NCBI GenBank assembly: GCA_964637135.1 | Contig: CAZWTX010000002.1 | Location: 62,001-126,000 of the forward strand | Length of the DNA stretch: 64,000 bases | Source of the DNA: an uncultured Methanospirillum sp. | Lineage (GTDB): Archaea > Halobacteriota > Methanomicrobia > Methanomicrobiales > Methanospirillaceae | Direction: 5' to 3' | Notes under the pieces: model-generated | The model's database searches: none | Seen by the model: only the letters and a program-made list of their open reading frames with translations | Told to the model about the DNA's origin: nothing | Part shown: piece by piece, positions 5,568 to 64,000 of the stretch | Numbering within the stretch: the stretch's first letter is position 1 | Layout: every line of letters starts with the position of its first letter | Translations under genes and position numbers: made by a program

Positions 5568-5993
5568 TTATTCCGTTTTTTCCCGCCGGAAGGTATCAAT
5601 TGCCGCTGAAGCATCCTCACCGGTTTCCAGGTAAATGAACTCAAGGGTATCCGGATCAAGAATCTGTCCGATGATCAGCCCGTCATTATACTCGGAGATA
5701 TAGAGGGACTTCATATCCGATCCGATGACACCGGAGAAACCAATGATACCGTTCCTGTCAGGATCAGCGATATTGGTGAACTGAATCGTTCCGTTAAAAG
5801 CCCGATCCCGCTGGTCTGATACCGCGAGAACAAATTCCCAACTCGATGGTCCGTCAAATCCATCAACACGGTCATGACCTGTCGAGGTTCCGGTCCAGGT
5901 TCCTACCAGATCCAGTACTCCTGTTGTCTGACCGAACGTGATCGGTATGGTCATCATCAGGAGCAGTACTGCCAGAATGAAGATTCGATTCAT
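5568..5993 (-). CDS. Secreted hypothetical protein (about 141 aa, predicted beta-rich)
   Basis: Start taken at MNRIFILAVLLLMMTIPITFG (signal-peptide-like), followed by DLVGTWTG. Same strand and downstream of two binding-protein genes. Confidence 0.7.
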   Translation of the reverse strand: MNRIFILAVLLLMMTIPITFGQTTGVLDLVGTWTGTSTGHDRVDGFDGPSSWEFVLAVSDQRDRAFNGTIQFTNIADPDRNGIIGFSGVIGSDMKSLYISEYNDGLIIGQILDPDTLEFIYLETGEDASAAIDTFRREKTE

Positions 5994-6152
5994 AGGTATT
6001 GTGAGTGGTGAGATTGCCGGGGAAATATCTCTGTCGCCTTGGAGGAGCTGGCCTGAAAGATTCACCAGATCCCGATCTTCTCTCAAAAGAAAATGATTAT
6101 TATATCATGAAAAAGTCCCCGTGAAACCCATCTTCATGATAATATGATGAAA

Positions 6153-7259
6153 TCAGGTCAATATAGGATACAGGAAGAGATCCTGTGAGATATCCTCGTT
6201 CGAACCCATGAACTTGTCAATGTACTCCTGATGAATCGCCATTGGATCAAAGTCGGTAAAGAGGTCAGGATGGAAGACCGGGGCAAGATAAATGGCACCA
6301 AGCCAGGTATCGCCGGAGAGGACGCTCATCGGGAGCCCGTAAATCTTGTTGTTCTTCACCGCATCGACATTCTCAAATCCGGGGATCTCTTTCAGGGAGG
6401 CGATCTTCTTCTCCATCGTGGAGGGATCGGTGACACCATACCCGCTCTCATGGTCCATCTCTTCAAAGACGATGTAAGCCGGGTCGTCCTTGATGACCGC
6501 TTCGAGATCGATCTCTGCCCAGTCCTCGTTGAGCTCCGAATTCATGTCGGTGCTTCCGGCAAACCCGAGCACATAGTGGAACCGGTTCTTTGCGCCGGAA
6601 CCAAAGATGCTGTTGTCCTTCCACTTGTAGGTGTACAGAGCCAGCGGCTTTTCATCATCTGTAAGATTTGAAACCCGTTCGCTGATGATATCAAGGTAAT
6701 GTTTCTTCCAATCGGCAAATGCGTCGGCCTTCTCCCGTTCCCCGACAATAGATCCGAGAACGCGGGTATTCTCAATCGTCGGTTCGAATCCTTCTTCCGG
6801 GGTCGGGAAGAGCGAGATAGAGACAACCGTCAGACCGGCTGCTTCCATCTTTCCAAGCTCCTCACCCGGGTAACTCCCAACATCAAAGACAACATCAGGA
6901 TTCAATTCCAGGATTTGTTCGATATCCAGTTCATCTCTCGTTCCGATGATCGTCTTCTGATCAATGCTTGGAAAGAGCACTTTTTCTTTTGCCGTATCAG
7001 TATCGATACCGACGATATTATCATACAGGCCCATCGCCTGGAGGGCGGAGGTCATCTGCTGGTGGGCATCGATGACGACAATGCGTTCTACCGGCTGCTT
7101 GATCGTAACCTCACGGTCGGAAAAATCCATGATGGAGACTGAATCAGGCGATTCGCTCGTCACCGTCATGATAGGAGTTGCTGTTCCCATCGCTATGCAG
7201 AGCATGAGCAGGATAAGCATGGCACATCCAGTTCGGACACACGTAATAAAACGCATCAT
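6153..7259 (-). CDS. Class III (Fe-siderophore/cobalamin-type, helical backbone) ABC substrate-binding protein
   Basis: Signal peptide; REVTIKQPVERIVV, DIEQILELNPDVV, DAVKNNKIY and YLAPVFHPDLF motifs. Confidence 0.9.
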   Translation of the reverse strand: MMRFITCVRTGCAMLILLMLCIAMGTATPIMTVTSESPDSVSIMDFSDREVTIKQPVERIVVIDAHQQMTSALQAMGLYDNIVGIDTDTAKEKVLFPSIDQKTIIGTRDELDIEQILELNPDVVFDVGSYPGEELGKMEAAGLTVVSISLFPTPEEGFEPTIENTRVLGSIVGEREKADAFADWKKHYLDIISERVSNLTDDEKPLALYTYKWKDNSIFGSGAKNRFHYVLGFAGSTDMNSELNEDWAEIDLEAVIKDDPAYIVFEEMDHESGYGVTDPSTMEKKIASLKEIPGFENVDAVKNNKIYGLPMSVLSGDTWLGAIYLAPVFHPDLFTDFDPMAIHQEYIDKFMGSNEDISQDLFLYPILT

Positions 7260-7566
7260 TAGATATCAACCATACGTATGATTAAATTTTTGAAATTTCA
7301 CATATCGTCCGAATAATTAATTTCGTTTTTTTCACAACCAACCATATAATAATACAGAATCTAATCTTCCAGCGTTTAATAGTTAAAAAAATTCACCCCT
7401 AATTTATATGCAGAATTATTAGAGACAAAGATTTAGTGCAATTCAGAGGGACCGCCTTCAACTCAACAGCCAGAAACTATCTAGCCCAGAAGGCTAATTA
7501 TATACAATTTCATAAAAATTTGTGCTAAAAATGAATTATGAATATCCGATCCAAACTCTACATGCA

Positions 7567-7600
7567 CCCAAGAGAAAAGGATCCCAAGAGAAAAGGATCC
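7567..7600. repeat. 16-bp tandem duplication (CCCAAGAGAAAAGGAT x2)
   Basis: Read directly: 7567-7582 and 7583-7598 are identical. Confidence 0.85.
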
Positions 7601-7625
7601 AAATTCGTTTAGAAAAAAGAGACCC

Positions 7626-8783
7626 TCATTGAGGGGGATACACAAAGATACCGTCCTTTTTTACATCAAAGTCAATTCCCAGGAATTTTTTCAGATACTC
7701 CTGGTGAATGGCATCGGGATTGAAATCTGCGAAGAGTTCGGGATGGATCAGGGGAGCAACATAGATCGTTCCAAGCCAGGTGTTTCCTGATAGCAGGCTT
7801 TTTGGAATACCATAAATCTGGTTCTTCTTCACGGCGTCGATGGTGTTAAAGCCGGGGATCTCTTTCATCCGTTCAATATCTCCGGCAATGATCGTTGGAT
7901 CGGTTACTCCATATCCAGAGGCATTGTAGTCGGTCTCATCGAAGATGATATACTCCGGGTTCTCCTTGATTGCAAACTCCGGATCTACGGTAATCCAGTT
8001 TCCATCCATCTGGTCGCCAAGATGGTTTGCTCCAACGAAATTAAGAACGTATGAAAACCGGTTATCCTTTCCGACGCTGTTGAGATTCACTGCATCCCAT
8101 TTGTAAATCAGCAGGGTTTTCGGTCGATCTTCGGCCGGAATTGAGGCAACGTTATTCTCTATCTCGTCAAGATATCCGGAGAGCCAGGAGACATATTCAC
8201 GACCCTTCTCCTTTGCACCCACCAGTGTCGCGATAACCTGGGCATTCTCAGTCGTTGGGTCAAACCCTTCAGCAGGCGTCGGCCATAACGAAGCGGTTAC
8301 AACGGTCAGGTGGGCATCTTCAAGTTTTTTAAGCAGTTCCTCATCGATATCTCCGGCGAGAACGAGATCAGGCTTCAGGCCGACAATCATCTCAATATCC
8401 GGTTCATCAGACGGACCGATCATCTCCTTCTTCCCGATATCCGGGAAGAGGATCTTCTCTTTAGCGGTCTCCTGGTCAATACCGATGATCTTGTCGTACT
8501 CGCCAAAAGCAGAGAGGGCATGGGTCATCTGCTGGTGGTTATCGAGGATGACAATCTTTCCGACTGGTTGGGCCACCGTAACTTCCCTTCCTTTAAGGTC
8601 GAGAACCGTTATTGCATCCGGATTTTCAGAGATAATTTTCATTACCGGAGCAGCCGATGTGGCTGTACACAGAAGGGCGAGAATACCGATGAGTATCAAT
8701 ATCCGGTATACCCCGCCGGTTTTCAAAAATTCAGCCCGAAATACAGAACGAGATGATTGCATATCAATATTATGATTCTTCAT
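7626..8783 (-). CDS. Class III ABC substrate-binding protein, tandem paralogue of 6153..7259
   Basis: REVTVAQPVGKIVI, DIEMIVGLKPDLV, DAVKKNQIY and HPELF motifs. True start may be downstream of the ORF start. Confidence 0.9.
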   Translation of the reverse strand: MKNHNIDMQSSRSVFRAEFLKTGGVYRILILIGILALLCTATSAAPVMKIISENPDAITVLDLKGREVTVAQPVGKIVILDNHQQMTHALSAFGEYDKIIGIDQETAKEKILFPDIGKKEMIGPSDEPDIEMIVGLKPDLVLAGDIDEELLKKLEDAHLTVVTASLWPTPAEGFDPTTENAQVIATLVGAKEKGREYVSWLSGYLDEIENNVASIPAEDRPKTLLIYKWDAVNLNSVGKDNRFSYVLNFVGANHLGDQMDGNWITVDPEFAIKENPEYIIFDETDYNASGYGVTDPTIIAGDIERMKEIPGFNTIDAVKKNQIYGIPKSLLSGNTWLGTIYVAPLIHPELFADFNPDAIHQEYLKKFLGIDFDVKKDGIFVYPPQ

Positions 8784-8850
8784 ATGTAAAATGAATTTTT
8801 ATTTTCTTGTAATAATTGGTATGATATAATTGGAGATCGTACCCTTATCT

Positions 8851-9597
8851 ATGCAAAATTCACCTGCTTATAACGATCAGAGATACAAAGATGAGATAGC
8901 AGATTACTGGAATGAACGAAGCGTAACCTTTGACGAAGAGATCGGACATGGTGGTGCAGACCGGGCGGAATGTCTTCTCTGGAAGCTCCATTTCAGGGAA
9001 ATTATTGGAGAAGAACCATTGAAGATCCTTGATGTCGGAACTGGAACCGGATTTATCGGTCTGCTCCTCGCAGAACTCGGACATGAGATTACCGGGATCG
9101 ATCTTGGTGAGAAGATGCTGGAAAAAGCCAGGGCAAAAGCCGAAAAAACGGATCTGTCTGCCACGTTTCTGATCGGTGATGCTGAACGCCCGGATTTTCC
9201 GGCCGATTCCTTTGATATTATCATCTGTCGCCATGTCTACTGGACCCTCCTCGAGCCGGAAAAAACCCTTCGTTCATGGAGAGAGATTCTTCGTTCTTCC
9301 GGACGGGTAGTACTAATTGATGGGAAGAAGAATCCTCCGACCGGGGATAAACCAAAGGTCTACACCAATGTTCATGGGGGGAAGGTCTATTCAGATGAAC
9401 TGGTGGAGAAGGTCCAGGGTGTGGATGTGACCATTGCAGAGATCAGCGAGAATCTTTCCCGTTCCGGTTTTATCAATATCCGGACCGTTTCACTCGATGA
9501 TATCGCGACGTATCATTCGGAGCAGACAAAGAAGAGATCCGGGGAGAAGAGTCAGGGCGGAGAAGTCAATGTGGTGATTGCCGAGGCAGGGAAATAA
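8851..9597 (+). CDS. Class I SAM-dependent methyltransferase (UbiE/Methyltransf_11-like)
   Basis: ILDVGTGTG motif I, GIDL..ML, SFDIIICRHVYWTL. Confidence 0.9.
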   Translation: MQNSPAYNDQRYKDEIADYWNERSVTFDEEIGHGGADRAECLLWKLHFREIIGEEPLKILDVGTGTGFIGLLLAELGHEITGIDLGEKMLEKARAKAEKTDLSATFLIGDAERPDFPADSFDIIICRHVYWTLLEPEKTLRSWREILRSSGRVVLIDGKKNPPTGDKPKVYTNVHGGKVYSDELVEKVQGVDVTIAEISENLSRSGFINIRTVSLDDIATYHSEQTKKRSGEKSQGGEVNVVIAEAGK

Positions 9598-9949: not shown

Positions 9950-10876
9950 ATGCTCTCCATCTCTTCACTTCAGACCTCCTTTGCCTCACGAGACGGGGCG
10001 GTGAAAGCGGTTGATTCAGTCGATCTGACCCTGAAGTCCGGTGAAAAAATAGGCCTTATCGGCGAGACCGGATGCGGAAAAACGGTTCTTGGGATGTCGG
10101 TCGTACGACTCCTGCCTCCTTCGGCAACGACTACCGGGACGATCACCTACCAGGGCAGATCGCTCTTTGGGTACTCTGAAAAAGAGATGCAGAAGGTACG
10201 GGGATCAGAGATCTCATTCATCCTCCAGAATCCGACAACCTCGTTAAACCCGCTGATCCGGGTCGGAGACCAGGTTGCAGAACGCCTCCGGGAGTATCAG
10301 GGATATTCCGGCAGCAGGGCATACCGGGAGGCCATCCGACTGATGCGTTCAGTAAACTTTCCGGATGCAGAAAAGAGGGGGACGCAGTATCCGCACGAAC
10401 TCTCCGGCGGGATGAGACAGAAGGTGATGATCGCGATGGGGATTGCCGGGGATCCGTCGCTCATCATCGCCGATGAGCCGACAAAAGCCCTCGACAAACG
10501 TAACAAGGCGGAAATACTCGGTATCCTGAACACCATCGCGGGGGACCGGTCCATGATCATGATCACCCACGATCTGACCGCGGCCGGGGAGGTTTGTGAC
10601 CGGATTGCGGTCATGTACGCCGGAGAACTTGTCGAGGAAGGTCCGGCAGAAGAGGTTCTCACGAGCCCTTCCCACCCCTACACCCGGGCATTCATTGCAG
10701 CCCATCCGAAAAAAGGGTGCAGACCGATCCCGGGATCAAGTCCGTCGCTCATATCTCCACCCTCCGGATGCCGGTTCCATCCCCGCTGTCCGGATGCATC
10801 GCCTGAATGCAGTCATAAACATCCGTTCATGAATCCGGCCGGTGATGAGAGGAGTATCAGATGCCACTGCCATTAA
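9950..10876 (+). CDS. Nickel/peptide ABC importer ATPase (DppD/NikD-like) with C-terminal Cys-rich domain
   Basis: GETGCGKT, YPHELSGGMRQ, IIADEPT, HPYT, CRFHPRC. Confidence 0.92.
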   Translation: MLSISSLQTSFASRDGAVKAVDSVDLTLKSGEKIGLIGETGCGKTVLGMSVVRLLPPSATTTGTITYQGRSLFGYSEKEMQKVRGSEISFILQNPTTSLNPLIRVGDQVAERLREYQGYSGSRAYREAIRLMRSVNFPDAEKRGTQYPHELSGGMRQKVMIAMGIAGDPSLIIADEPTKALDKRNKAEILGILNTIAGDRSMIMITHDLTAAGEVCDRIAVMYAGELVEEGPAEEVLTSPSHPYTRAFIAAHPKKGCRPIPGSSPSLISPPSGCRFHPRCPDASPECSHKHPFMNPAGDERSIRCHCH

Positions 10877-11610
10877 TTGAAGTCCAGGATCTGACGAAAG
10901 AGTATTCGTCCGGGTTTATTTCGCAGGATATCCAAAAAGCGGTTGATGGTGTATCTTTCAGGATTTACCCCGGCGAGACGCTCGGTCTTATCGGGGAGTG
11001 TGGAAGCGGAAAGACAACAATCGGAAGGCTGATTCTCAGGTTAATAGAACCGACATCAGGCCGTATCTTCTTTGACGAAACCGAGATCACCCACCTGACC
11101 CGCAGACAGATGAAACCATTCCGGCAACGGATGCAGCCCATCTTTCAGGATCCAGAGAGTTCCTTAAATCCAAGAATGAAGGTCCGGGAGAGTATCGCAG
11201 AACCCTACCGGTTATGGACCGATCTCTCATCATCTGCCATTGCAGAGAAAATCAACGGACTTATCGAGATTGTCGGACTTAATCCCGAACTCTTAAACCG
11301 CTACCCGTATCAGATGAGCGGGGGTCAGAACCAGCGGGTGGTCCTGGCACGGATCCTTGCCCTTGAACCTGAGTTTCTCGTCGCCGATGAACCGACCGGG
11401 TCGCTTGATGTCTCGGTTCAGGCGCAGATGCTTGATATCCTGATGAGATGGAAGGAGAAACATTCCCTCACGATCCTGTTCATCTCTCATGACATCGATC
11501 TCATTCAGGCATTCAGCAACCGGGCGATTGAACTTGAATCGGGAAGAATTGTCCGGGAACACTCCAGTATGTACAGCCAGTTGACACCGGGTAATCCAGT
11601 AATGACCTGA
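10861..11610 (+). CDS. Nickel/peptide ABC importer ATPase (DppF/NikE-like)
   Basis: GECGSGKTT, FQDPESSLNPR, YPYQMSGGQNQR, VADEPT. Confidence 0.92.
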   Translation: MPLPLIEVQDLTKEYSSGFISQDIQKAVDGVSFRIYPGETLGLIGECGSGKTTIGRLILRLIEPTSGRIFFDETEITHLTRRQMKPFRQRMQPIFQDPESSLNPRMKVRESIAEPYRLWTDLSSSAIAEKINGLIEIVGLNPELLNRYPYQMSGGQNQRVVLARILALEPEFLVADEPTGSLDVSVQAQMLDILMRWKEKHSLTILFISHDIDLIQAFSNRAIELESGRIVREHSSMYSQLTPGNPVMT

Positions 11611-11734
11611 TCGGGAAGCCTTTTTTTCGAGTTTGAGATGCTGTTTGAACAATTTATAATATGATTAATTTTTTTTCATCATGTTGTGTGAATTAAATGA
11701 GTATTATTAATACCAAATCTGTAGAATTTCTACT

Positions 11735-12499
11735 ATGTCTCATGGCACCTATGATCTGAAAGAAGCTCTTCGGATCGAATGGGATGGTTCTTCCGGCGGG
11801 TATGATGCCCAGCATTCACATGGTATTCAGACGCAGGAAGAACGGCAGGCATGGATCGATCTCTTCAGATCCATCACCCCTGCAGGTTCCCTGGACATAC
11901 TTGATGTCGGATGCGGGACCGGGGAGATCAGTATGGTTCTTGGGGAAATGGGTCACCGGGTAACCGGGATCGATCTCTCTAAAGGGATGCTCGACAAAGC
12001 CAGGAAAAAAGCGGGCCTGACTGATTACCGGGTTGGTTTTTTCACCGGGGATGCAGAAGCCCTGACGTTTGCTGATAACTCCTTTGACCTCGTGGTCAAC
12101 CGTCATCTCCTCTGGACGCTTCCAAGTCCTGATGCTGCTCTTAAAGAATGGAGCCGGGTTCTTCGGCCGGGAGGAAGCGTTGCCATCATCGACGGCCTGT
12201 GGAGAGATGATTCCTTCTCTGAAAAATGCCGCAGGTTTACAGGAAATCTTGGGGTCCTGCTTACTGAGCGCAAAAATCAGTTTGGAGAGTATTACTCCCC
12301 GGAGATGATCCATGCCCTTCCCCATCCGTACGGGATGACGGCGGATGTTGCTCTTGGTTATGTGAAAGATGCCGGATTTGTATCCCCGGGCATTCATCCC
12401 ATGACCACAATCATGGCAATTCAACAGAAACACATGCCCCTTTCCCGCCGGATATCATTTCATAAAACGTATTTTCTGATTACCGGAAGGAAACCGTAG
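11735..12499 (+). CDS. Class I SAM-dependent methyltransferase
   Basis: ILDVGCGTG, SFDLVVNRHLLWTLP, EWSRVLRPGG. Confidence 0.92.
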   Translation: MSHGTYDLKEALRIEWDGSSGGYDAQHSHGIQTQEERQAWIDLFRSITPAGSLDILDVGCGTGEISMVLGEMGHRVTGIDLSKGMLDKARKKAGLTDYRVGFFTGDAEALTFADNSFDLVVNRHLLWTLPSPDAALKEWSRVLRPGGSVAIIDGLWRDDSFSEKCRRFTGNLGVLLTERKNQFGEYYSPEMIHALPHPYGMTADVALGYVKDAGFVSPGIHPMTTIMAIQQKHMPLSRRISFHKTYFLITGRKP

Positions 12500-12525
12500 G
12501 TTACGAACAAAAAGGAAACACAGAT

Positions 12526-14127
12526 ATGAACAGCAATAGGATGAAATTCTTTATTTCCCTGGCTATCATACTCCTGATCTTCGGAGCGACCGGAACAGTC
12601 AGTGCTGCTGGCGGAAAGACACTCGCAATTGCCATTGGAACAGAACCGAGCGATCTCAATCCGATCACCAGCTCGGGACACGGGGATTATTTTGACCTCA
12701 TTAAGACCTACAGCGGTCTTATCAAGTCAGATGACAATCTCGAAACAGCACCTGACCTGGCAACATCATGGGAACAGCCTGATGAAGGAACCTTTATTTT
12801 CCATCTTCGTGACGGGGTGAAATGGCATGACGGAGAACCATTCACATCTGATGATGTCAAGTTCACGTATGACCTGATACGAAACGGAAATTATGTCTCG
12901 CTCTTCCCCCTCTCATCAGATTACTACGATGTCACAAGCATCGAGACCCCTGATAAGAACACGGTAAAATTTACGGTAAAAAACCCAATCGCACCATTCT
13001 TCGAGAGATTTGCCCTTCCGATCCTTCCAAAGCATCTTCTTGAGGGGCAGGATCTGACTACCTCGGATTACTGGCAGCATCCGGTCGGGACCGGCCCGTA
13101 TGTCTTTGATCACTGGAACAAGGGTGAAGAACTCGTGTTCACTGCGAACAAGAACTACTATGACGGAGTCCCAAAGATTGAAACCCTCAAGTTTATCATG
13201 GTGCCTGACGAGAGTGCCCGGATAAACCTCCTCAAGACCGGCGAAGTTCAGGCGATCAAAGTCGGACCAAAGAATGTTGCTTCGCTCAAGAATGAACCGG
13301 GAATACAGGTTATCTCCCATCCATCGGCGAACTGGTACTCGATTAACATGCCGTATGTCCTGCCCCAGTTCAAGGACAAGGCAGTTCACCAGGCCATTGC
13401 TCTTGCCATCGACCGGAAAGGTATTCTCGACACGATCTTTGCCGGTCAGGGCCTGATCGCCTACGGTCCGTTCAGCCCGGAGAACTGGGTATACAACTCT
13501 GCCATTGAGTATACCCAGGATCCGGAAAAGGCAAAGAAGATCCTTGACGATGCCGGGTGGAAAGTTGGAGCAGACGGAGTGCGGGAAAAAGATGGTGTAA
13601 AGCTCGAGTTCGACCTCCTCTATGTCGCCTCGAACCCGGAACGGAAAGACATTGCCATCGCGGTTGCTTCAGACCTTGATAAGATCGGGATCAAGGCAAA
13701 CCCGGTCGCAAAAGCCAACTGGGACGAGATGACGTACCAGTTGTTCCGGACAAACGCCGTGGTCATGGCCCAGGGATCCCCGTTCGATCCCGATGATTCG
13801 AATTACCGGCTGTACCATTCCAAGTATGTCACTTCTGACCGGTGGGACAACCCGATGCAGTACGTAAATCCCGAGGTAGACAAACTCCTCGACGAGGGCC
13901 GGACCACCTGGGACAGGAACGAGAGAAAAGGCATCTACCAGCAGTTCCAGAAGATTATCACCGATGACCAGCCGGCCGCTCCGATCATCTTCGGGAATTA
14001 TGTGTATGCCGTCAATGACAAGGTCACCGGAACGGTTCCCCGGAACGGTCCGCATGGCGGAGGGAACACCGGATCTATCATGGGCGATCTCTGGTGGAAT
14101 GTCGAGAAATGGGATCTTGCCGGGTGA
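12526..14127 (+). CDS. Family 5 (NikA/DppA/OppA-like) substrate-binding protein
   Basis: Signal peptide; PDLATSWE, FHLRDGVKWHDGEPFTSDDVKFT, PVGTGPY. Confidence 0.93.
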   Translation: MNSNRMKFFISLAIILLIFGATGTVSAAGGKTLAIAIGTEPSDLNPITSSGHGDYFDLIKTYSGLIKSDDNLETAPDLATSWEQPDEGTFIFHLRDGVKWHDGEPFTSDDVKFTYDLIRNGNYVSLFPLSSDYYDVTSIETPDKNTVKFTVKNPIAPFFERFALPILPKHLLEGQDLTTSDYWQHPVGTGPYVFDHWNKGEELVFTANKNYYDGVPKIETLKFIMVPDESARINLLKTGEVQAIKVGPKNVASLKNEPGIQVISHPSANWYSINMPYVLPQFKDKAVHQAIALAIDRKGILDTIFAGQGLIAYGPFSPENWVYNSAIEYTQDPEKAKKILDDAGWKVGADGVREKDGVKLEFDLLYVASNPERKDIAIAVASDLDKIGIKANPVAKANWDEMTYQLFRTNAVVMAQGSPFDPDDSNYRLYHSKYVTSDRWDNPMQYVNPEVDKLLDEGRTTWDRNERKGIYQQFQKIITDDQPAAPIIFGNYVYAVNDKVTGTVPRNGPHGGGNTGSIMGDLWWNVEKWDLAG

Positions 14128-14133
14128 TCTCTG

Positions 14134-51720: not shown

Positions 51721-51739
51721 ATAACCTGCCTGGTATCGG

Positions 51740-53057: not shown

Positions 53058-53106
53058 ATATTGGAATATGTGCATGATCGGGTAGACAACCTATTGGAAT
53101 GTCATT

Positions 53107-54919: not shown

Positions 54920-55448
54920 AAAATCCGACAATCAGGCCGAAAAAGGTACCTTTTTTCTCATCCGGGACAGAGAGGTTTTCTAACTCCCCGTCTGTCCCAG
55001 TATTAAAACCGAAGAAGACCGGGAAGATCATACAACTCACGGGTTTTGGTCATGATCTCAATACCTTCATATAGGATACCAACATCCATACGGGGATTCC
55101 GGACACCCGATATACATATGAAACGACAAGAGTTGAGCAGATGGCGGGGGATACCTGAACCGAATGAAGCCTACCCAACAGGGTAGCAGGCACCTCCGCC
55201 ATGTGAAAAGTGCTCACAGAATCACATGATATGATCCTGAATCACGATTTACCATGGAAGTTACCATGAATGATAACCCCATGAGGAGTGCATATGATAG
55301 TACATATGCAGTTATATATTTATCACACTAAATCATAATAAGTTTCCTATCTCTCATACGATAGTCGCCCTGACACGGATACTCCTAATATACTGATTTT
55401 TTCACTCATCACCCATAACGGGCGATAATCTTACCACGATCTACTGAA

Positions 55449-55475
55449 GTATTACTAAAATAAAAAAAGTAATAA
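55449..55475. promoter_or_regulatory. NikR-like palindrome
   Basis: GTATTAC-N13-GTAATAA. Confidence 0.55.
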
Positions 55476-56081
55476 CCTATATCTCCTCTAAGAGTACACG
55501 TACCAGTAACAGGAGAACACCTTGATGAGCAGGTGATCACTGTTACACACATACCAGTCAGAGAGGATACATCAGGTCACACTCATGGAACAGTTGGTTT
55601 CATCCGGTTAATTCCGGCCAGAGGGACATCAGCCGGAGGTACCTGCTGTTCGTGGGAGCATCAGACACAACCAGTCACGTTTCAAAATGCCTTCACCATG
55701 CCTGATCTGCCGATCCCTATGAGGGTCTCATTCGGTAACGGTATAGAGGGAGATGTGGCAGAAACCTGGTTCGTCGACATGACTCCGGCTCATCCGAGGA
55801 GATCCTGAAGGAAATTCTCACAGTACCACGAACGAGGACAAGAGCGTTCGCCGGGTTCAGAAGGAGAAGGTTTCCTTCCCTTCTGCACTCAACAGTTCAG
55901 GACTATCTCTTCTCACAGAAATCCCGGAAGGGATTCTTCATCAATGGTTATCACCACCGTTGGGGATGATATCAGATTAACCACGGTATGACAATCAGCA
56001 GTCACAGACGGATGGTGTCGTGATGATACCTGCCTGCATGAGAGATATTTAGAATACATTTTAAGATAAAATGGTTATTTT

Positions 56082-56108
56082 TTATTACGAATTTTAATAT
56101 CGTGATAA
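56082..56108. promoter_or_regulatory. NikR-like palindrome upstream of the mcrD paralogue
   Basis: TTATTAC-N13-GTGATAA. Confidence 0.5.
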
Positions 56109-56189
56109 CTTTTTTACCATGGAAGTTATATGATACCATACCGGAAGATCCCATCCCCGGGGATCACCGGAGAAAAAAGGAGTTACGCA

Positions 56190-56675
56190 ATGGAGCCCGA
56201 ATCATACCCCCAATGCCGGATTGTCCCTATCCGGATGCTTCAGTCAGATACTGCCGAGAAATTTCTTGACGGAATTGCCTGCATTCCAGGAATCCGAAGA
56301 ATGCTTGTGCATGGACCAGGGTATCTTGACAAGGTTCCCTGCAGGCCACGCGATCTCTGCGAGATAGGAATCCCGGCCTATAAAGAAGTGAAAATATCGG
56401 AGCAGCCGATCAGGATGTATGTCCTGATGGGTGATGTGATCATCGAGGCATTTGATGAAAAAGTGTTTGATACGGTTGCCGATTACTGTACCGAATTCTT
56501 CGATGACTTTTCATTCCAGATCCTGGTGGGAACATTCCTGAAAACTGAACCATCCCTCGCTGATTACCTCATCGAGAAGAAGCAGGAACCAGAACTGGTC
56601 GGGATGTCTGATTACCACCAGGGAGTGTATCCCACGGTGATAAGGCAGGATATTCCGGAGATCTGCAACACCTGA
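56190..56675 (+). CDS. mcrD: Methyl-coenzyme M reductase operon protein D paralogue (stand-alone, divergent)
   Basis: YPQCRIVP.RML...TAEKFL..I..IPGIRRM..HGP, GDVIIE, GTFLKTEPSLADY and GMSD match the McrD pattern. AGGAG RBS before ATG 56190. Confidence 0.82.
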   Translation: MEPESYPQCRIVPIRMLQSDTAEKFLDGIACIPGIRRMLVHGPGYLDKVPCRPRDLCEIGIPAYKEVKISEQPIRMYVLMGDVIIEAFDEKVFDTVADYCTEFFDDFSFQILVGTFLKTEPSLADYLIEKKQEPELVGMSDYHQGVYPTVIRQDIPEICNT

Positions 56676-56940
56676 TCATCTCTTTTTTCAAGGTATACGG
56701 TTGATGGTCCCGGGCCTTATAAAGCAGGGCAGGGGATGTTTTCCGTTGAGGTTCTCCCTGACACCAGTACTCCGAATCTTTATCCGGATGAGGCAGATTC
56801 ACGGATCATTCCCCAGGTATTCGGAATACAATCCTTTCCATCCGTCTGTGCCAGAGGATCGTAAAAACCGGGATATCCCGGAATTGTACCGGTCGGCACC
56901 GGAATTCCAGTATGCATTAACGTGTTCTTTCAGGGCCATA

Positions 56941-57750
56941 TCAGTTCATCTCCCCGGCCGGCTTTTTTCCAGACACGATGCAGTACGGAACATCATATGA
57001 CAGTCTGTTGATCCTGGGCATATACCGTCGCTGAATCTCCTGGATGTGAATCAGATCCTCATGCGAGAGACTGACAAACCCATTCCGCGTAAGACAGGAT
57101 CCTATCTGATCCATCGTCGGCCCTGAATAGTACGGAAGTGCCTTCTTAAGATCGTCATCATAAAATTTCGACTTCTGTCTTCCTTTCTCGGTCAGGAACG
57201 TGTACGCACCACTGATCCATCGCCCAATCTGTTGCCTGATACCTGAATGATACCAGTTCCCGTCGATAACCAGAAGTGTTCCGTCAGGTTTCAGGACCCG
57301 TTTCCATTCCTGGATCGCTTTGTCCGGATGGGGAAGGGTCCAGAAGAGATGACGGTTGAGGATCACATCCATGGAACTGTCAGGCCATGAGAGCGATTCC
57401 GCATCCCCCATCTCGAACTGGATAGAATAATCCAGGGATAATGCCTTGTTCCTCGCTTTAGCCAGCATCTGTTCGGAGAGATCCACCCCGGTCACCTGAT
57501 GGCCCATTCCGGCAAGAAGGATACTCATCTCCCCGGTACCACAGCCGACATCGAGGATCCGCATCGAATCTCCGGGGATCTTCTGCCTGAGAAGATCAAT
57601 CCATGCCTCTTTCTCTTCATCGGTCTGGATCCCATGGGCATGATGGGTATCATACTGCTGCGAGGAGACATCCCATCTCTTCCGGATCTTCTCCTTGATC
57701 TCTGCATCCATGACAGAACCCGGCCCGTCTCCCGGCATGGTTTCAGCCAT
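56941..57750 (-). CDS. Class I SAM-dependent methyltransferase (paralogue of 11735..12499)
   Basis: WDVSSQQYDTHHAHG, ILDVGCGTG, NRHLFWTLP, EWKRVLKP. Confidence 0.92.
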   Translation of the reverse strand: MAETMPGDGPGSVMDAEIKEKIRKRWDVSSQQYDTHHAHGIQTDEEKEAWIDLLRQKIPGDSMRILDVGCGTGEMSILLAGMGHQVTGVDLSEQMLAKARNKALSLDYSIQFEMGDAESLSWPDSSMDVILNRHLFWTLPHPDKAIQEWKRVLKPDGTLLVIDGNWYHSGIRQQIGRWISGAYTFLTEKGRQKSKFYDDDLKKALPYYSGPTMDQIGSCLTRNGFVSLSHEDLIHIQEIQRRYMPRINRLSYDVPYCIVSGKKPAGEMN

Positions 57751-57751
57751 G

Positions 57752-58624
57752 TTATTCTGCCTCCCACATTCCAGGCTGTCTTACCGAAGGATCCCACCAG
57801 ACCACCGCAGTCTTATACGTTCTCATAATCCGCCTGCCTTCGGGGAGATCCATCGCGGTTTTATCGAGATGTCGCCTGATCTTCTCTTCTACCTCCGGAG
57901 TGAATTCCATATAGATCGAGTAAAAAACCCGGTACATGGTCATCAGGCGGTCGATAGACCGGACACTTGACGACGAGATGATCTCGACATGGGGAATACG
58001 GCCATTCTGGTAGAGAATGTTGTAGATATACGGGTACTCGGGGTACTGGGGATATGGCGTATCACCCATGATGCTCTGCCATAGCATTAGTTCCTCACCG
58101 CCGGCGGATCCAAATCCGGCAGCAATACAGCAATGGCCCCGGGATACCTCCTCCATCCTCCGGACCTGGTTCATGATATCGCGAAACATCCAGATCACCG
58201 TGGAGGTGATAACCAGATCAAAAGAGCGGGAGTGCTTTTTGGTATCAACATCCTGCCAGATTGCAGGGATAATGGTGTAGTTTGTAACTCCGGCCTCGGC
58301 AGCATTCTCATGGATTCTGGCAATCATTCCTTCCGCAGGTTCGATTGCCGTATATTGTTCTGCATAGGGAGCGATAGGAATCACAAAGGTTCCCGGACCG
58401 GACCCGATCTCGGCAACCGCCCCGTTCTGCCGGAGAATCTTCCGGCGGAGCAGGAGATCAGCAACTTTACGTCCGAACTCATATTCGTTCGACCGACGCG
58501 CTTCAGAGTAATCCTCCGAGCGCTCTGTCCAGTCATCGACCTGGTAATCACGCTGCATAGTCCGGGACCGGGCATCATAGAGCTCTTCCCATACCTGTTC
58601 CCAGTCGATGACAGACCCGCTCAT
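57752..58624 (-). CDS. Class I SAM-dependent methyltransferase
   Basis: DWEQVW..DDWTERSEDY, AEIGSGPG, IEPAEGM, FDLV. Confidence 0.88.
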   Translation of the reverse strand: MSGSVIDWEQVWEELYDARSRTMQRDYQVDDWTERSEDYSEARRSNEYEFGRKVADLLLRRKILRQNGAVAEIGSGPGTFVIPIAPYAEQYTAIEPAEGMIARIHENAAEAGVTNYTIIPAIWQDVDTKKHSRSFDLVITSTVIWMFRDIMNQVRRMEEVSRGHCCIAAGFGSAGGEELMLWQSIMGDTPYPQYPEYPYIYNILYQNGRIPHVEIISSSSVRSIDRLMTMYRVFYSIYMEFTPEVEEKIRRHLDKTAMDLPEGRRIMRTYKTAVVWWDPSVRQPGMWEAE

Positions 58625-59442
58625 GACCCCACCTTCCACCACATCAGTCCCATCAGTCCTGAACCAGAATACATGTCGTCCACCAGCCGGGAGAGAACAT
58701 ATTCGCTGATGATCGAACGGTCCTCTTCAGTAACCGGATGGTACTTCTGGACTACCAGTTCCATAGCGGTGAGAATGGATTCTTTCGATCTTCTGGTGGT
58801 GTACGGGATAACTTCAACATTCGGGGGCATATCATGCTGGTTGAAGAGGTTGAAAAGCGTGTGAAACTGGTCAAACTCCGGTTCGGAAACACCGAGGCGG
58901 GAATAGAGATCGACCGTATCTGCATCGGAGCCAAACCCGCCGGCGATAACACAACAACCACGGGAGGCCTGGTGCATCCGTTTCACCTGCTGTAATATAT
59001 CCGGAAAATGCCAGAGCGAGTGGCAACAGAGAACCAGATCATATCTTTTTTCGTATCCGGAAATGTCGATGTTCTGCCAGGTACTCTGGATGGAGGTAAT
59101 ATTCATCAGGTTTTCATTCCGGGCATTTCTTTCCAGCTCCTGGATCATCTGGAACGCCGGTTCAATGGCAGTCACCTGCCGGGCAGACCGGGCAAACGGA
59201 ATGGTCAAGGCCCCGGGTCCGGAACCGATGTCAAGAACTTGGGAATCAGGTGAGAATATTCCCTGCTTGTGGCAGAATGAACATATCTTCTCGCCGTGTT
59301 CAAACCGGCTGTTTCGGACCATGTCGGTATAGTCTGCAGCCCGCTTCTCCCAGTAATCCACTGATGTCCGGGTAGCCATCTCGCGGATTGAATTCTCCCA
59401 GAGATTATCCCACCGGATTGTTTCTGTCCTGTTCATGATCAT
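58621..59442 (-). CDS. Class I SAM-dependent methyltransferase
   Basis: YWEKRAADY, VLDIGSGPG, IEPAFQM, YDLV. Confidence 0.9.
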   Translation of the reverse strand: MIMNRTETIRWDNLWENSIREMATRTSVDYWEKRAADYTDMVRNSRFEHGEKICSFCHKQGIFSPDSQVLDIGSGPGALTIPFARSARQVTAIEPAFQMIQELERNARNENLMNITSIQSTWQNIDISGYEKRYDLVLCCHSLWHFPDILQQVKRMHQASRGCCVIAGGFGSDADTVDLYSRLGVSEPEFDQFHTLFNLFNQHDMPPNVEVIPYTTRRSKESILTAMELVVQKYHPVTEEDRSIISEYVLSRLVDDMYSGSGLMGLMWWKVGS

Positions 59443-59553
59443 ACATCCAAGCTCCCAAACGATTCTGTATACATCGGAAAAGATACAAATCTCAGATTGA
59501 ATGAGAGCACATAATAATAATTTTCTTACATTAGTACCACTAATAGTTCACGA

Positions 59554-60507
59554 ATGAACCCTGTGATCGAGATATCTGATCTGACCGTAACGTTTAATGG
59601 GTCTGCATACCGGCTGACTGCACTGGACGACGTGCATCTCTCCATCCGGTCAGGAGAGACCGTTGCAATTATCGGTGAAAGCGGAAGCGGAAAATCAGTT
59701 CTTGGCCTCTCGATCCTCGGTCTTCTTCCCGATTCTGCTGAAGTCAGCGGAACGATCAGGTATGAAGGAATGAATCTTGTTACCGCCACATATCATGAGC
59801 TGGAACGGATACGGGGAGGAGCGATGGCCTGGATACCTCAGAATCCAAAAACGGGATTCAATCCATCGATGAAGATGTGGAAACAGATAACTGAACCACA
59901 GGTGATTCATACTTCCCGGTCCTGGTCATCTGCCCGGCAGCAGGCGAAAAAGCTCCTGGAACAATTCCGTATTTTGCCCGCAGAAGAGTGGGCTGAGGCA
60001 TATCCGATCACATATAGCGGGGGAATGCTTCAACGTGCCATGGTGGCCATGGGAATATCTGCCGATCCACGGATCATTATTGCAGACGAACCCACGAAAG
60101 GCATTGATCAGATCAATAAGACTGATGTCACGGAAATTTTTGCCGGACTAAAAGAAAAGGAGATTACCCAGATTCTCATCACTCATGATCTGGATTTTGC
60201 TGCCGCACTCGCCGATCGCATCGTGGTAATCTATTGCGGCGAGATCGTAGAAATAGCAGGGAGAGAACAGTTTTTTTCATCTCCCCGGCATCCGTATTCA
60301 CGTGCACTACTCAAATCGCTTCCCCAGAACGGCCTCACGCCGATTCCAGGTTCATCCCCACCGCTTCATATCGCGTTTACCGGATGCCGGTACAGGGACA
60401 GATGTGAAGTGTGCCGTGAAGAATGCAGCGTGAAGATCCCGTTTATGTCTGTTGGTAATGATTATGTCAGATGTATCTCCTACGATAATCGGATCCGGGA
60501 TCAGTAA
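59554..60507 (+). CDS. Nickel/peptide ABC ATPase (DppD/NikD-like)
   Basis: GESGSGKS, YSGGMLQR, IADEPTKG, HPYS, CRYRDRC. Confidence 0.92.
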   Translation: MNPVIEISDLTVTFNGSAYRLTALDDVHLSIRSGETVAIIGESGSGKSVLGLSILGLLPDSAEVSGTIRYEGMNLVTATYHELERIRGGAMAWIPQNPKTGFNPSMKMWKQITEPQVIHTSRSWSSARQQAKKLLEQFRILPAEEWAEAYPITYSGGMLQRAMVAMGISADPRIIIADEPTKGIDQINKTDVTEIFAGLKEKEITQILITHDLDFAAALADRIVVIYCGEIVEIAGREQFFSSPRHPYSRALLKSLPQNGLTPIPGSSPPLHIAFTGCRYRDRCEVCREECSVKIPFMSVGNDYVRCISYDNRIRDQ

Positions 60508-61384
60508 GATCTACGAATCGGGTTTTCTCTCCAAAACCCGGACTTCTGCTCTGGTTAATGTTGATATTGCCATCCATCCGGGTGAGACATATGCGCTGGT
60601 CGGTGAAAGTGGAAGTGGAAAATCCACTCTGGGTCGCATTCTGCTGATGCTCATTCCCCCGTCTGAAGGATCGGTGACCTATCACGGAGAAAAAATTACC
60701 GGGAGAAATGATAAGGGTTTCTCGTTAATCCGGCGTAAACTGCAGATAATTCCACAACATCCGGAGGATGCACTGAATCCGAGATGGAAACTCAGTCGGT
60801 CAGTTCTGGAACCGTATGAAATTCACCCGGATCTGAACGGGAATACTCCCCGGAATGAAATCATACGGGACCTTCTCAAACAAACCGGGCTGAATGTCGA
60901 GTATGTAAACCGGTACCCACATCAGCTCTCCGGCGGAGAACTCCAGCGTGCCGTTATTGCCAGGACTATCGCCCTCAACCCTGACTTCATTGTTTGTGAT
61001 GAACCAACGTCGATGCTTGATGTTTCTGTCCAGGCATCCATTATTCATCTTCTCCAGGAGATCCAGCAAAAAACCCGGGTGGCCCTGTTATTCATAACCC
61101 ATGATATCAAACTTGCCAGAGTAATCGGAGACCGGATCGGGGTTATGTTCAGGGGACAGATCGTAGAAGAAGGAACCGAGATCCTTCTCCATCCACTCCA
61201 TCCATATACCCGGTTCCTGTCCGGAACGGGGAGAAATACTTTGATTTTCGATTCTCTTTCACCAGAAGGCTGCCCGTTCCGGAAGATATGTCCGGCAGCA
61301 GACCAGGTCTGCCTGACAGAGCCCTCCCTGGTTGTATCTGATAGAAGATCAGTCCGTTGCCATAACCCACAGAACCTCCATTAA
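60464..61384 (+). CDS. Nickel/peptide ABC ATPase (DppF/NikE-like)
   Basis: GESGSGKST, YPHQLSGGELQR, CDEPTSMLD, CPFRKIC. Confidence 0.92.
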   Translation: MSDVSPTIIGSGISKIYESGFLSKTRTSALVNVDIAIHPGETYALVGESGSGKSTLGRILLMLIPPSEGSVTYHGEKITGRNDKGFSLIRRKLQIIPQHPEDALNPRWKLSRSVLEPYEIHPDLNGNTPRNEIIRDLLKQTGLNVEYVNRYPHQLSGGELQRAVIARTIALNPDFIVCDEPTSMLDVSVQASIIHLLQEIQQKTRVALLFITHDIKLARVIGDRIGVMFRGQIVEEGTEILLHPLHPYTRFLSGTGRNTLIFDSLSPEGCPFRKICPAADQVCLTEPSLVVSDRRSVRCHNPQNLH

Positions 61385-61441
61385 AATAACACAAATTTGA
61401 ATAAAATATCATTATGTAATAAATATATACAACAGATCCAT

Positions 61442-62977
61442 ATGGAAAGATGGAAACTCGTTCTCACATACGTAGTCATCGCGGTATTACTGGTATCCTG
61501 CATGGCGACTGCCGATGATTCGACTTCAGTGCTCATCATTGCCGGTCCGTGGGATGGGCAGTCGGATCCTCATGTGTCAGGGTACTCCCTGCAACGCCTC
61601 GGGGTAACAGAGACCCTTGTAGATGTTGACCAGTCAGCAGCCCTTGCACCCGGTCTTGCTACGTCATGGGAAGTGTCTGGCGATCAACTGGTCTGGACCT
61701 TCCACTTGAGAGACAGCGTGTCATTCCATGATAAAACCCCTCTCACCGCTCAGGCGATGAAAAAATCTCTTGATGACTCATTGACAAAATCCAAGACTTT
61801 TGCAAAAGTGCCAATCAAGGAGATTTCTGCAGTCGATGACAAGACCCTTGAGATCTCCCTAACAAAACCGTTCCCTTCACTTCCTGCGTACATGGCCAAG
61901 GGTGAGAGTGCTGCCCTCTCTGAGGCGTGCATCGATCAGGGAGATATCACAAAGCCTATCGGAACCGGTCCGTTCATCTTCGAATCATTCTCTCCGAAAG
62001 AAGAGATGATTATCATGAAAAATCCTGACTACTGGGGAAAGAAAGCATCTATAAACGAAGTTGATTACAAGGTGGTTCCGGAAGCTGCAACCCGTTCATT
62101 GCTCCTTGAGAGTGGCGATGTCGATATCATCCAGATCGTTCCAGCCGATATCGCTAAATCGTTTGCATCCAAATCCGGTTTCACAGTAAATTCGCAACCG
62201 ATTTCCCGTGTCAGGGCAATGTTCTATAACTGTGAAAGCGGCCCGTTTGCAGATCAGAAAGTCAGACAGGCGATGAACTATGCTATAGACCGGCAGGCAA
62301 TTGTCGATTATATTTTAGAAGGGGTCGGATCTCCAGCCGCCAGTCTCTTCCCACCTGAGTTTTTCTGGGCTGATAAGAGTATACAGCCGTTTGCATACGA
62401 TCCAGAAAAGGCAAAGACCATGCTTGCCGAAGCAGGGTGGAAAGATTCCAACAACGACGGAGTTCTTGATAAGGACGGAGAGAAGTTGTCAATAACCCTG
62501 GTAACGTATCCCGAACGTGCTGAATTACCTCCAATCGCTGAGGTCATCCAGGATCAGTTGAAGGAAATTGGTATTGAAGTCGAAATTAAGAGTCTTGATA
62601 ATGATTCATCGATTGCCCTTCGAAACAAGGGAGATTTCGACATCTACCTCATGGGAAGAGGACTGCTTTTTACCCCTGATCCTGACGAGGTTATGATGAC
62701 TGATTACCATTCTTCCGGGACATCAGGAGATGGTTCCGGAGCATACCGGTGGTCAAATGCCCGGGTGGATGAATTGATAGAACAGGCCAGGGCGGTAAAC
62801 GATCCGGATGCACGAAAGATACTCTATGATGAAGCCCAGCAGATTATCGTAGATGAGGCACCGGTATCATTCCTGAATTATTATGTAAACCAGGATATTA
62901 CCTCGAGCAACGTGAACGGATACCGGATGCATCCGACCGAGATGTCCTATCACCTGGAGGATGTAACCCTCAGTTAA
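61442..62977 (+). CDS. Family 5 substrate-binding protein (NikA/CntA-like)
   Basis: Signal peptide from MERWKL; ETLV, PGLATSWE, FHLRDSVSFHD, PIGTGPF, VRQAMNYAIDR. Confidence 0.92.
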   Translation: MERWKLVLTYVVIAVLLVSCMATADDSTSVLIIAGPWDGQSDPHVSGYSLQRLGVTETLVDVDQSAALAPGLATSWEVSGDQLVWTFHLRDSVSFHDKTPLTAQAMKKSLDDSLTKSKTFAKVPIKEISAVDDKTLEISLTKPFPSLPAYMAKGESAALSEACIDQGDITKPIGTGPFIFESFSPKEEMIIMKNPDYWGKKASINEVDYKVVPEAATRSLLLESGDVDIIQIVPADIAKSFASKSGFTVNSQPISRVRAMFYNCESGPFADQKVRQAMNYAIDRQAIVDYILEGVGSPAASLFPPEFFWADKSIQPFAYDPEKAKTMLAEAGWKDSNNDGVLDKDGEKLSITLVTYPERAELPPIAEVIQDQLKEIGIEVEIKSLDNDSSIALRNKGDFDIYLMGRGLLFTPDPDEVMMTDYHSSGTSGDGSGAYRWSNARVDELIEQARAVNDPDARKILYDEAQQIIVDEAPVSFLNYYVNQDITSSNVNGYRMHPTEMSYHLEDVTLS

Positions 62978-62998
62978 CCCCCTTTTTTGGTATCGATA

Positions 62999-63943
62999 AT
63001 GCGTAACTTTATTCTCATTCGTCTTCTCCAGACCATCCCGGTTCTCCTTGGGATCACCTTCATTGCCTTCTTTCTCCTGTATCTTTCTCCGGGAGATCCT
63101 GCAGAAATAACTCTACGTGCATTGATGAACACGGATAACCCCCCTGATGAGGCCGTTGCTGAACTTCAAAAAGAGATGAACCTCGACAAACCCTGGTACA
63201 TCCAGTACACATCATGGCTCTCACGGGTGATGACCGGTGACCTGGGGTATTCATACCAGACACGGAGAAGTACGGTTGATGAGATTAAACGGGCATTTCC
63301 GGTAACATTTCTGTTATCGACGATTACATTACTTATTTCATGCATTATCGCCATCCCCATCGGTATCCTGGCAGGGATCAGGCAGAATGGGATAATCGAT
63401 CACTTTTCACGTGCACTATCCATCCTGGGTCTCTCAATCCCGGATTTTTTTCTCGGGATCCTGGGCATTCTCATCTTCTCGATTTATCTGAAAATCTTGC
63501 CGGTAGCAGGGTATAAGGGGCCTGAATACCTGATCCTTCCTGCGTTTGCCCTTTCAGCCGGACTCTTTGCGATCACCATGAGGCTCATGCGGACAAGTAT
63601 GGCCGAGGTATTAGAGGAGGAATACATTCGTACGGCGGTTTCAAAAGGCCTTGACAGACCCTCTATCATCAGGAGGCATGCGATAAAAAATGCCATCGTC
63701 CCGGTAATTACCTACATCGGGACCCAGTATGGCTGGCTGTTTGGGGGAACGATGATCATCGAATCACTATTTGCCATTCCCGGAATGGGCAGGCTCTTTG
63801 TGGATGCAGCCTCTACCCGTGACATCATGGTGATGCAGGGCTGCGTTCTAGTATTTGCTATTGTATTTGTGATCATAAATCTCGGTATCGATATCTCGTA
63901 TTACATCCTCGATCCACGGATCCGGGAGGAAAATGAAAACTGA
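62999..63943 (+). CDS. Nickel/peptide ABC permease (NikB/DppB-like)
   Basis: LSPGDPAE, GDLGYSY, EYIRTAVSKGL, IESLFAIPGMG, LDPRIR. Confidence 0.92.
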   Translation: MRNFILIRLLQTIPVLLGITFIAFFLLYLSPGDPAEITLRALMNTDNPPDEAVAELQKEMNLDKPWYIQYTSWLSRVMTGDLGYSYQTRRSTVDEIKRAFPVTFLLSTITLLISCIIAIPIGILAGIRQNGIIDHFSRALSILGLSIPDFFLGILGILIFSIYLKILPVAGYKGPEYLILPAFALSAGLFAITMRLMRTSMAEVLEEEYIRTAVSKGLDRPSIIRRHAIKNAIVPVITYIGTQYGWLFGGTMIIESLFAIPGMGRLFVDAASTRDIMVMQGCVLVFAIVFVIINLGIDISYYILDPRIREENEN

Positions 63944-64000
63944 TCATAACCTGACCGGTCTTGTGGACTGGTGGGCAGAGACGGTCCCCCGTGTGAGACA
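63933..64000 (+). CDS. 5' fragment of next gene, probably the NikC/DppC permease
   Basis: GGAGG RBS and ATG overlapping the upstream stop (MKTDHNLTGLVDWW...). Identity inferred from operon order only. Confidence 0.5.
   Translation, partial: MKTDHNLTGLVDWWAETVPRVR

Follow-up and report, generated by a model that had tools for sequence, protein, structure and literature searches.

How does nickel limitation switch on hmd, the gene of the nickel-free [Fe]-hydrogenase, and why do methanogens keep two methyl-coenzyme M reductases (MCR)? Both questions are raised by a 64,000-nucleotide stretch from an uncultured Methanospirillum sp. (GCA_964637135.1, contig CAZWTX010000002.1, positions 62,001 to 126,000), here called the window and written G000:C2:62001-126000, where G000 is this 2.8-Mb genome and C2 its contig. 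The locus offers a candidate for the operator and another for a low-nickel MCR isoenzyme, together with two paralogues in which particular residues have been lost. The 61 open reading frames (ORFs) of the window were scanned against Pfam and NCBIfam, with curated cut-offs as the basis of family assignment, and the locus was compared among 274 genomes of the order (G-numbers are genomes, f and g denote families and genera, and L-numbers are fetched loci). An original prediction, made from the window alone, had joined hmd, the cofactor genes hcgA-G, importers, methyltransferases and several other genes at 5568-64000 into a single nickel-starvation programme of about 58 kb. We favour a smaller unit. 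The hmd and hcgA-G genes, an FrhD paralogue lacking a histidine and a second MCR operon without mcrC probably form a conserved core that is repressed by nickel through NikR and spares nickel for MCR. In the literature, of which few subscription papers and no supplements were within reach, we found no description of this combined module.

The [Fe]-hydrogenase system of the window is complete. Hmd exceeds its equivalog cut-off, all seven hcg genes are present, and HcgA contains the CX5CX2C motif described for it (PMC3087415, partial text). The genes are arranged as follows.

53107-54165, + strand: hmd, [Fe]-hydrogenase, core (TIGR01723, 591.8 bits against a cut-off of 341.45)
51740-52834, - strand: hcgA, radical SAM enzyme with CX5CX2C, core (TIGR03957 over its cut-off, and sequence)
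51189-51671, - strand: hcgB (PF11576, positions 1-153)
50398-51189, - strand: hcgC (PF06690)
49632-50396, - strand: hcgD, NIF3 family (PF01784 and synteny; TIGR00486 below its cut-off)
48989-49591, + strand: FMN reductase/flavodoxin-like gene within the hcg cluster, in an equivalent place in G024, G193 and G213
48076-48822, - strand: hcgE (HcgE structure PDB 3WV7, E 4.9e-87; no Pfam match)
47504-48079, - strand: hcgF (PF06787)
45878-47419, - strand: hcgG (TIGR03958 over its cut-off)

The true start of hcgE likely lies about 30 codons inside the called frame. The hcgB frame is open upstream of its called GTG, and no ATG, GTG or TTG occurs at the expected start (51669-51680); hcgB likely starts at an ATT behind a GAGGTGA ribosome site, a region in which a contig from another study is identical letter for letter. 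The partner enzyme Mtd is encoded outside the locus, as two pieces at the contig ends C26 and C54. In the relative G193, an HmdII-like paralogue is inserted in the hcg cluster (L035:16992-18017), and downstream of hmd lies the gene of a CooC-like ATPase that begins with a His-rich stretch.

The most conserved partner of hmd lies beyond the reach of the original prediction. We found hmd in 11 of the 274 genomes, and in eight of these, from four genera and two families, an mcrB(D)GA operon without mcrC is located within 1.7-22 kb of it; three of the linked operons also lack mcrD. The linkage persists through rearrangement in the four genera. A scan of further genome contigs with Hmd gave just four loci, all close ones. 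The contig of G018 is too short to judge linkage, and an mcrC-less operon is present elsewhere in that genome. In G000, the operon is found about 9 kb past the window end.

G000:C2:135413-139728, - strand: second mcrBDGA operon, beyond the window end (64000), with DUF4198, ChlI and CobN (marker only)

The McrD-like gene of the window had been called an orphan, but this full mcrBDGA operon stands only about 17 kb away from it. An ordinary mcrBDCGA is additionally present, far from hmd, in G024, G054, G149 and G193, indicating that the linked operon is a second isoenzyme. Five tested McrA active-site motifs were kept in 31 of 31 sequences and a sixth in 30 of 31. Assuming the roles that we take these motifs to have, the second MCR is still a nickel enzyme. 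As in MCR II (mrtBDGA) of Methanobacteriales and Methanococcales, a second isoenzyme operon without mcrC thus keeps the McrA active-site motifs; the second McrA, of 568 residues, differs from MCR II in sharing 73-84% identity with canonical McrA from within the order. The second MCR is likely a within-order paralogue, judged from trees that did not include Mrt of Methanobacteriales.

Within family f1, second-type McrB occurred in 6 of 6 hmd genomes and in 10 of 147 others, among kin that are not independent. Two of these ten carry hcgG alongside the operon, on broken contigs; of the remaining eight loci, two are near nikR and three near an FrhD paralogue. Among the second-type sequences, those of f1 group firmly together as a clade. 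A single clade of all second-type MCRs is not secure: it received an ultrafast bootstrap (UFBoot) value of 96 with 31 sequences, with G040b outside, and with 51 sequences it was recovered for McrB only and not for McrA or the concatenation. In G040, the McrA proteins of its two operons (L100/L101) group together and the McrB proteins do not, a sequence pattern that suggests gene conversion. Neither mcrBDCGA nor frhADGB was found in the G000 assembly. We do not accept a true absence of Frh and canonical MCR from the organism, as the frh gap falls at syntenic contig ends (C29, C85 and C49) and mtd itself is split. Both operons were likely lost in assembly, which is less secured for mcr; when a relative's canonical operon was compared with four read runs, several mixed strains were seen and no assignment was possible.

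The published deltaproteobacterial NikR consensus is GTGTTAC-N13/14-GTAACAC (PMC545781, partial text). Boxes of this type in the window are as follows.

53030-53057: NikR-type box between hcgA and hmd, matching 13 of 14 positions of the published consensus
55448-55476: NikR-type box with the top profile score in the genome
56081-56109: NikR-type box ahead of the mcrD-like gene
47439-47467: NikR-type box ahead of hcgG
48770-48799: NikR-type box ahead of hcgE and the FMN reductase gene
59513-59541: weaker box between methyltransferase genes and importer 3, at the same position in three relatives

With at most one mismatch, the deltaproteobacterial consensus matched a single site in the 2.8 Mb, that at 53030-53057, and with six control spacers it matched none. 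The genome has nine two-mismatch sites, two of them intergenic, one before importer 2 and one before a class III/FecCD operon on C13. A relaxed pattern, allowing at most one mismatch, was present in 24 of 98 regions upstream of the relatives' cluster homologues (divergent pairs counted twice) compared to 2 of 176 other regions, and at hmd it was significant in five of five f1 relatives. A profile built from 24 relatives' sites gave 20 sites scoring at least 13 in G000, of which six are in the region (4% of the genome) and one is inside a NikM-type operon on C11; control-spacer profiles gave 23 sites in G000, none in the region. Shuffle tests on the 23 intergenic regions of the window (p uncorrected) returned p <= 0.007 at hcgG, hcgE/FMN reductase, hcgA/hmd, 55448 and the mcrD-like gene, and p of about 0.02 for weaker boxes at three importer promoters. 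In 15 of the 23 regions no significant box was detected by this test, and none was detected at importer 2, four class III units, COG0523/ModD or the exporters.

Just upstream of the boxes at hmd, the mcrD-like gene and the second mcrB are sequences that look TATA-like by eye, and a box placed just downstream of such a sequence would suit repression. The importer-3 box lies 59-62 bases ahead of the start in G000, G011, G013 and G022. An intact nikR is present in the genome (PF08753 at C9:70858), encoding RHH and Ni-binding domains and the His/His/His/Cys residues that we take to be the Ni ligands. Five relatives (G024, G193, G213, G239 and G210) have nikR in a position flanking the core or second mcr, and in three relatives it is beside the hmd cluster; CbiM/NikM-type transporters flank the core or second mcr in G024, G210 and G138. 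A de novo scan for exact palindromes did not bring out the box, a scan for sigma-70 promoters and terminators stayed at chance level, and Rfam and tRNA scans of the stretch found nothing. The operator shape and spacing are those of the deltaproteobacterial NikR regulon, where repression of nikMNQO and of a hydrogenase without nickel (hydAB2) is likewise predicted (PMC545781, partial text). Unlike that regulon, the boxes described here are in an archaeal host, have A/T-shifted half-sites and precede FeGP cofactor genes and possibly MCR genes. In genus g6, the second mcrB promoters (L201-L203, L205, L206, G193 and G213) carry everted half-sites about 14 bases apart below a TATA box, which resemble reversed NikR sites of the same study; g6 also has divergent NikR paralogues.

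The main rival explanation takes Methanobacteriales, with their Hmd and MCR II, as its model. The mcrC-less MCR and Hmd would be paired for fast growth at high hydrogen, with nickel control reaching only hmd-hcg and the importers. Hmd has a low affinity for H2, and the gene set without mcrC resembles MCR II. Second-type MCR is also common in f3 and f5 without hmd or nickel genes. MCR II is reported as dominant at high H2/CO2 (PMC12900384, partial text), and Mrt as dropping under limitation of H2 and CO2 (PMC12350162, partial text). Against such a pairing stand the hmd-less second operons of f1, which are often beside nikR, NikM-type or FrhD-paralogue genes (G239, G210, G184, G185 and G206), and the box found at a similar position ahead of mcrB in G000, G007, G017 and G024. 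We consider it unlikely; among the alternatives to the nickel-repressed core it is the likeliest.

The proposed nickel-repressed core includes a gene directly downstream of hmd that resembles the maturation endopeptidase of the F420-reducing hydrogenase Frh.

54362-54919, + strand: FrhD paralogue without the DAHS histidine (DAIPGG in its place), core, with no box of its own

The protein scored 115.7, below the FrhD equivalog cut-off of 134.95, and its gene is located outside the frh operon. It belongs to the HycI/HybD family by fold and by an N-terminal GxGN...DDG motif; its model (predicted local distance difference test score, pLDDT, of 74.5) matched the HybD fold with Z 17.5 (VIA) and a root-mean-square deviation of 2.8 over 153 aligned residues. 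The paralogue adjoins hmd-hcg in 8 of the 11 hmd genomes, and these eight copies were the top eight matches in a search of the order with a profile built from them. None of the 8 hmd-linked copies has the DAHS histidine at its position, and six of them have no histidine there at all; all 5 frh-operon copies and all 22 next-best matches keep it. We take this residue to be the metal ligand His93 of HybD, in an alignment to 1CFZ that is uncertain by one residue. Compared to the FrhD, HybD and HycI endopeptidases, the paralogue retains the fold and both acidic motifs and differs in having DAxPGG or DHxPGG for DAHS, in forming its own tree group and in lying outside the frh operon. As a separate observation, a CGTAC...GTACG palindrome is conserved in the frhA leader of 22 of 22 genomes (L095, L096 and L221-L240), along with further blocks that look paired; this may possibly be a regulator site or a structured RNA.

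The second paralogue follows after 1.2 kb in which no conserved ORF was found, though the strongest box is there.

56190-56675, + strand: McrD paralogue, a genus-restricted subfamily without the YGPARG and DYAKYG motifs

Its score of 82.8 is below the McrD equivalog cut-off of 100, and the PF02505 match spans nearly the whole domain. The subfamily was seen in genus g1 only (6 of 274 genomes by search, plus G017) and comprises 41 database clusters. The motifs YGP[AS][RK]G and DYx[KR]YG occurred in none of the 41 members, compared to 32 of 33 and 33 of 33 operon McrDs, respectively. By position, the first lost motif falls in the loop with which McrD wedges into MCR, part of which many McrDs have lost (PMC10288656, partial text). 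The paralogue is thus like McrD in its domain match and unlike it in lacking both loop motifs and in having His41 and Cys100, which are near-invariant among the 41 sequences. A Cys-rich metal loop, invariant in five sequences, was rejected on finding it missing from many of the 41. A 91-codon ORF behind the box at 55448-55476 had no homologue in the fetched loci, and a 16-base repeat (55245-55265 and 56110-56130) precedes a 25-codon ORF and the mcrD-like gene.

On the observed gene content, linkage, motif losses and boxes we build four steps, given in falling order of confidence. The boxes are predicted NikR operators that would repress hmd, hcg and the mcrD-like gene. Importers 1 and 3 and one FecCD unit may be under the same control and take up nickel or nickel complexes. 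The second MCR may be a low-nickel isoenzyme. Finally, the residue changes suggest that the FrhD paralogue could bind the FrhA precursor without cutting it and slow the maturation of nickel hydrogenase, and that the McrD paralogue could be an altered F430-loading chaperone. With plentiful nickel, Ni-NikR would keep the core off. With scarce nickel, Hmd and the FeGP pathway, together with Mtd, would take over from Frh and some importers would open, while the co-induced MCR isoenzyme, the extra McrD and the non-cutting FrhD would steer nickel to MCR. The steps for the isoenzyme, McrD and FrhD rest on linkage and residue loss. Nickel would be directed to MCR because, to our knowledge, MCR has no nickel-free substitute. 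A bolder form, which we regard as rather unlikely, is a nickel triage: NikR would derepress the low-nickel MCR and Hmd, a dead FrhD would hold the hydrogenase precursor, and a remodelled McrD would speed F430 loading, moving nickel from hydrogenase to MCR.

The physiology and the operator type are already known. In the literature within reach we found no account of a physical module that joins them to a second MCR operon, an FrhD paralogue without its histidine and an altered McrD. In Methanothermobacter marburgensis, Hmd and Mtd replace Frh under Ni limitation (PMC3087415, PMC12350162), and at low Ni the levels of Hmd, HcgG, transporters, CobN1 and NikR1 rise while the Mcr:Mrt ratio shifts. 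Mcr falls to about 10% and Mrt to about 50% (PMC12350162), providing a precedent for an isoenzyme shift. The present locus is alike in having Hmd with hcgA-G and in clustering the kinds of genes that are induced there. It is unlike M. marburgensis, for which the available text of PMC3087415 and PMC12350162 describes only hcg as clustered with hmd and gives no operator, in that hmd-hcg is tied to a second MCR, a His-less FrhD, a remodelled McrD and candidate operators.

Several results weigh against the proposed nickel-repressed core. The relaxed pattern was chosen after the window sites had been viewed, and the sites that trained the profile were picked with it. Counts of three-mismatch consensus sites in the window were at chance (2 against 0.66 and 2 against 0.74 expected). 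The hmd promoters of five f4/f6 genomes have only two-mismatch sites (p 0.15-0.31). Boxes at second-mcr promoters are inconsistent: 6 of 15 scored at least 12, three of them training sites, compared to 6 of 18 canonical mcr promoters, and among 20 further promoters one did. No consistent box is seen at the frhA promoters, where 2 of 22 scored at least 13, and NikR activation of frh was rejected on this ground. In G075 and G083, hmd occurs with neither the second MCR nor the FrhD paralogue, no mcrC-less operon being found in 75 and 40 kb, respectively, and the complete genome G001 has the McrD paralogue, no hmd and a single mcr. Two of the eight hmd-linked FrhD paralogues have a histidine shifted one residue earlier, and the FrhD paralogue beside one hmd-less second mcr retains its histidine. 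Second-type McrB was detected in 64 of 274 genomes, mostly hmd-less, at a threshold that misses the known copies in G054 and G149; at 11 f3/f5 second-mcr loci no homologue of the nickel-related reference genes was found.

If the core is nickel-controlled, it bears on the maintenance of two MCRs in methanogens and on the induction of hmd at low Ni. In nature, Ni is often present at nanomolar levels (PMC12350162). A nickel-specific MCR would therefore matter for methane flux, for trace-metal dosing of digesters and for mcrA surveys in which two operons are counted as two taxa.

How far does the nickel-controlled unit extend? All the genes listed in the original prediction were recovered in Pfam and NCBIfam scans, hcgE through the PDB. 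Around hmd-hcg these comprise three family-5 ATP-binding cassette (ABC) importers, five class III binding proteins, seven methyltransferases, COG0523 and a ModD that passes its curated cut-off. The real region is about 113 kb (C2, approximately 40-153 kb), overrunning the window at both ends.

6153-9597: two class III binding proteins and a methyltransferase; no significant box
9950-15958, + strand: family-5 importer 1 and a methyltransferase; weak box at 11700; binding protein at 12526-14127 nearest to NikZ structures
17447-24335: FecCD/FecE permease, exporter-type ABC pair and divergent class III binding protein; weak shared box at about 22991
24546-26898: COG0523 GTPase and ModD; no box, outside the conserved unit
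34215-36219, + strand: class III binding protein and methyltransferase; no box
36568-41675, + strand: family-5 importer 2; 12 of 14 match to the published consensus at 36417, not significant by profile
41592-45689, - strand: class III binding protein, fused FecCD-ATPase and O-methyltransferase; no significant box
56941-59442, - strand: three class I methyltransferases, which accompany the importers across the genus
59554-64000, + strand: family-5 (Nik/Dpp) importer 3, running past the window with a second binding protein

The four family-5 binding proteins of the genome all lie inside 54 kb of C2, a clustering beyond chance. No binding protein reached the curated NikA cut-offs (best scores 301 against 600 bits and 264 against 393 bits). 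The importer 1 binding protein is closest to NikZ/NikA among structures (PDB 8EFZ and 4OET) and keeps the equivalent of Arg344, the chelator arginine, and one of the two prong histidines known from NikZ-type proteins (bioRxiv 10.1101/2022.10.03.510666, partial text). It is unlike them in having proline for the second prong histidine, a His26-like residue that is not conserved in orthologues, and scores below the cut-offs; His52 as a conserved ligand was rejected. Importers 2 and 3 are without the prong, and the matches of importer 3 mix nickel and peptide binders.

The view that a single nickel-starvation programme spans the entire 58-113 kb and takes in every importer and methyltransferase as well as COG0523 and ModD draws on G024, which has the same gene mass around hmd and many boxes, some of them ahead of two binding proteins in which the His-His prong is complete. 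It also draws on two complete hmd-less genomes that share the importer/methyltransferase cluster: in G013, a transposase, a 5'-truncated hcgC and hcgDEFG lie inside the cluster, as would be expected if hmd had been lost from a formerly joint locus, and in G022 the cluster contains nikR. Together these suggest an old association within the genus. Linkage and boxes speak otherwise for most of the region. NikR-type boxes support shared nickel control for hmd/hcgA, hcgE, hcgG and the mcrD-like gene, and more weakly for three importer promoters, but not for the remaining promoters. Linkage to hmd in relatives held for the FrhD paralogue and failed for the importers: near hmd, family-5 binding proteins number four in G024, one in G083 and none in G054, G075, G148, G149, G193 and G213, so six of eight relatives with at least 40 kb of context have none, and methyltransferases number 12 in G024 and at most one in the other relatives. 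The importer mass also persists in complete genomes that have no hmd. Of 24 congeners, 3 have a COG0523 orthologue, and in the complete genomes G022 and G024 it lies 0.7 and 2 Mb away from the cluster. No ModD appeared among the clusters fetched from five relatives, the class III proteins only distantly resemble iron, siderophore and corrinoid binders, and nothing was found to indicate that the methyltransferases handle nickel. Lack of linkage to hmd in relatives, which the original prediction had named as evidence against itself, was thus found for part of the region. A single programme across 5568-64000 is improbable, and the other importers, the methyltransferases, COG0523, ModD and the exporters are a wider metal- and cofactor-uptake neighbourhood of the genus.

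Plasticity of the locus raises the opposite explanation, in which it is a dumping ground for accessory genes, the linkage reflects shared gain and loss, and both paralogues are decaying passengers. The patchy distribution of hmd, the transposase-cut relic in G013, a 1.8-kb duplication and a split hydrolase gene would fit. Both paralogues nevertheless keep full-length frames with many invariant residues across genera, the hmd-mcr linkage outlasts rearrangement in four genera, and the boxes are conserved in relatives. We give this explanation very little credence, the least of those considered. The duplication covers 1825 bp at 98.5% identity and contains a FecCD-FecE pair (window 21009-22832 and G000:C2:54958-56781). 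The hydrolase gene, of the alpha/beta type and divergent from the second mcrB, is seemingly split over two frames (G000:C2:140440-141509; L002:16440-17509), and intact homologues with strong boxes recur across the genus, hmd-less genomes included.

A secreted protein of a methanogen family is encoded at 5568-6086; it has two paralogues elsewhere in the genome, and no link to the module was found. Boxless PadR, MATE and ABC exporter genes (27230-33623) break up the importer region. Window positions 44001-64000 were covered nearly completely, at identities of at least 99% and with no conflicting joint, in metagenomes of four other studies.

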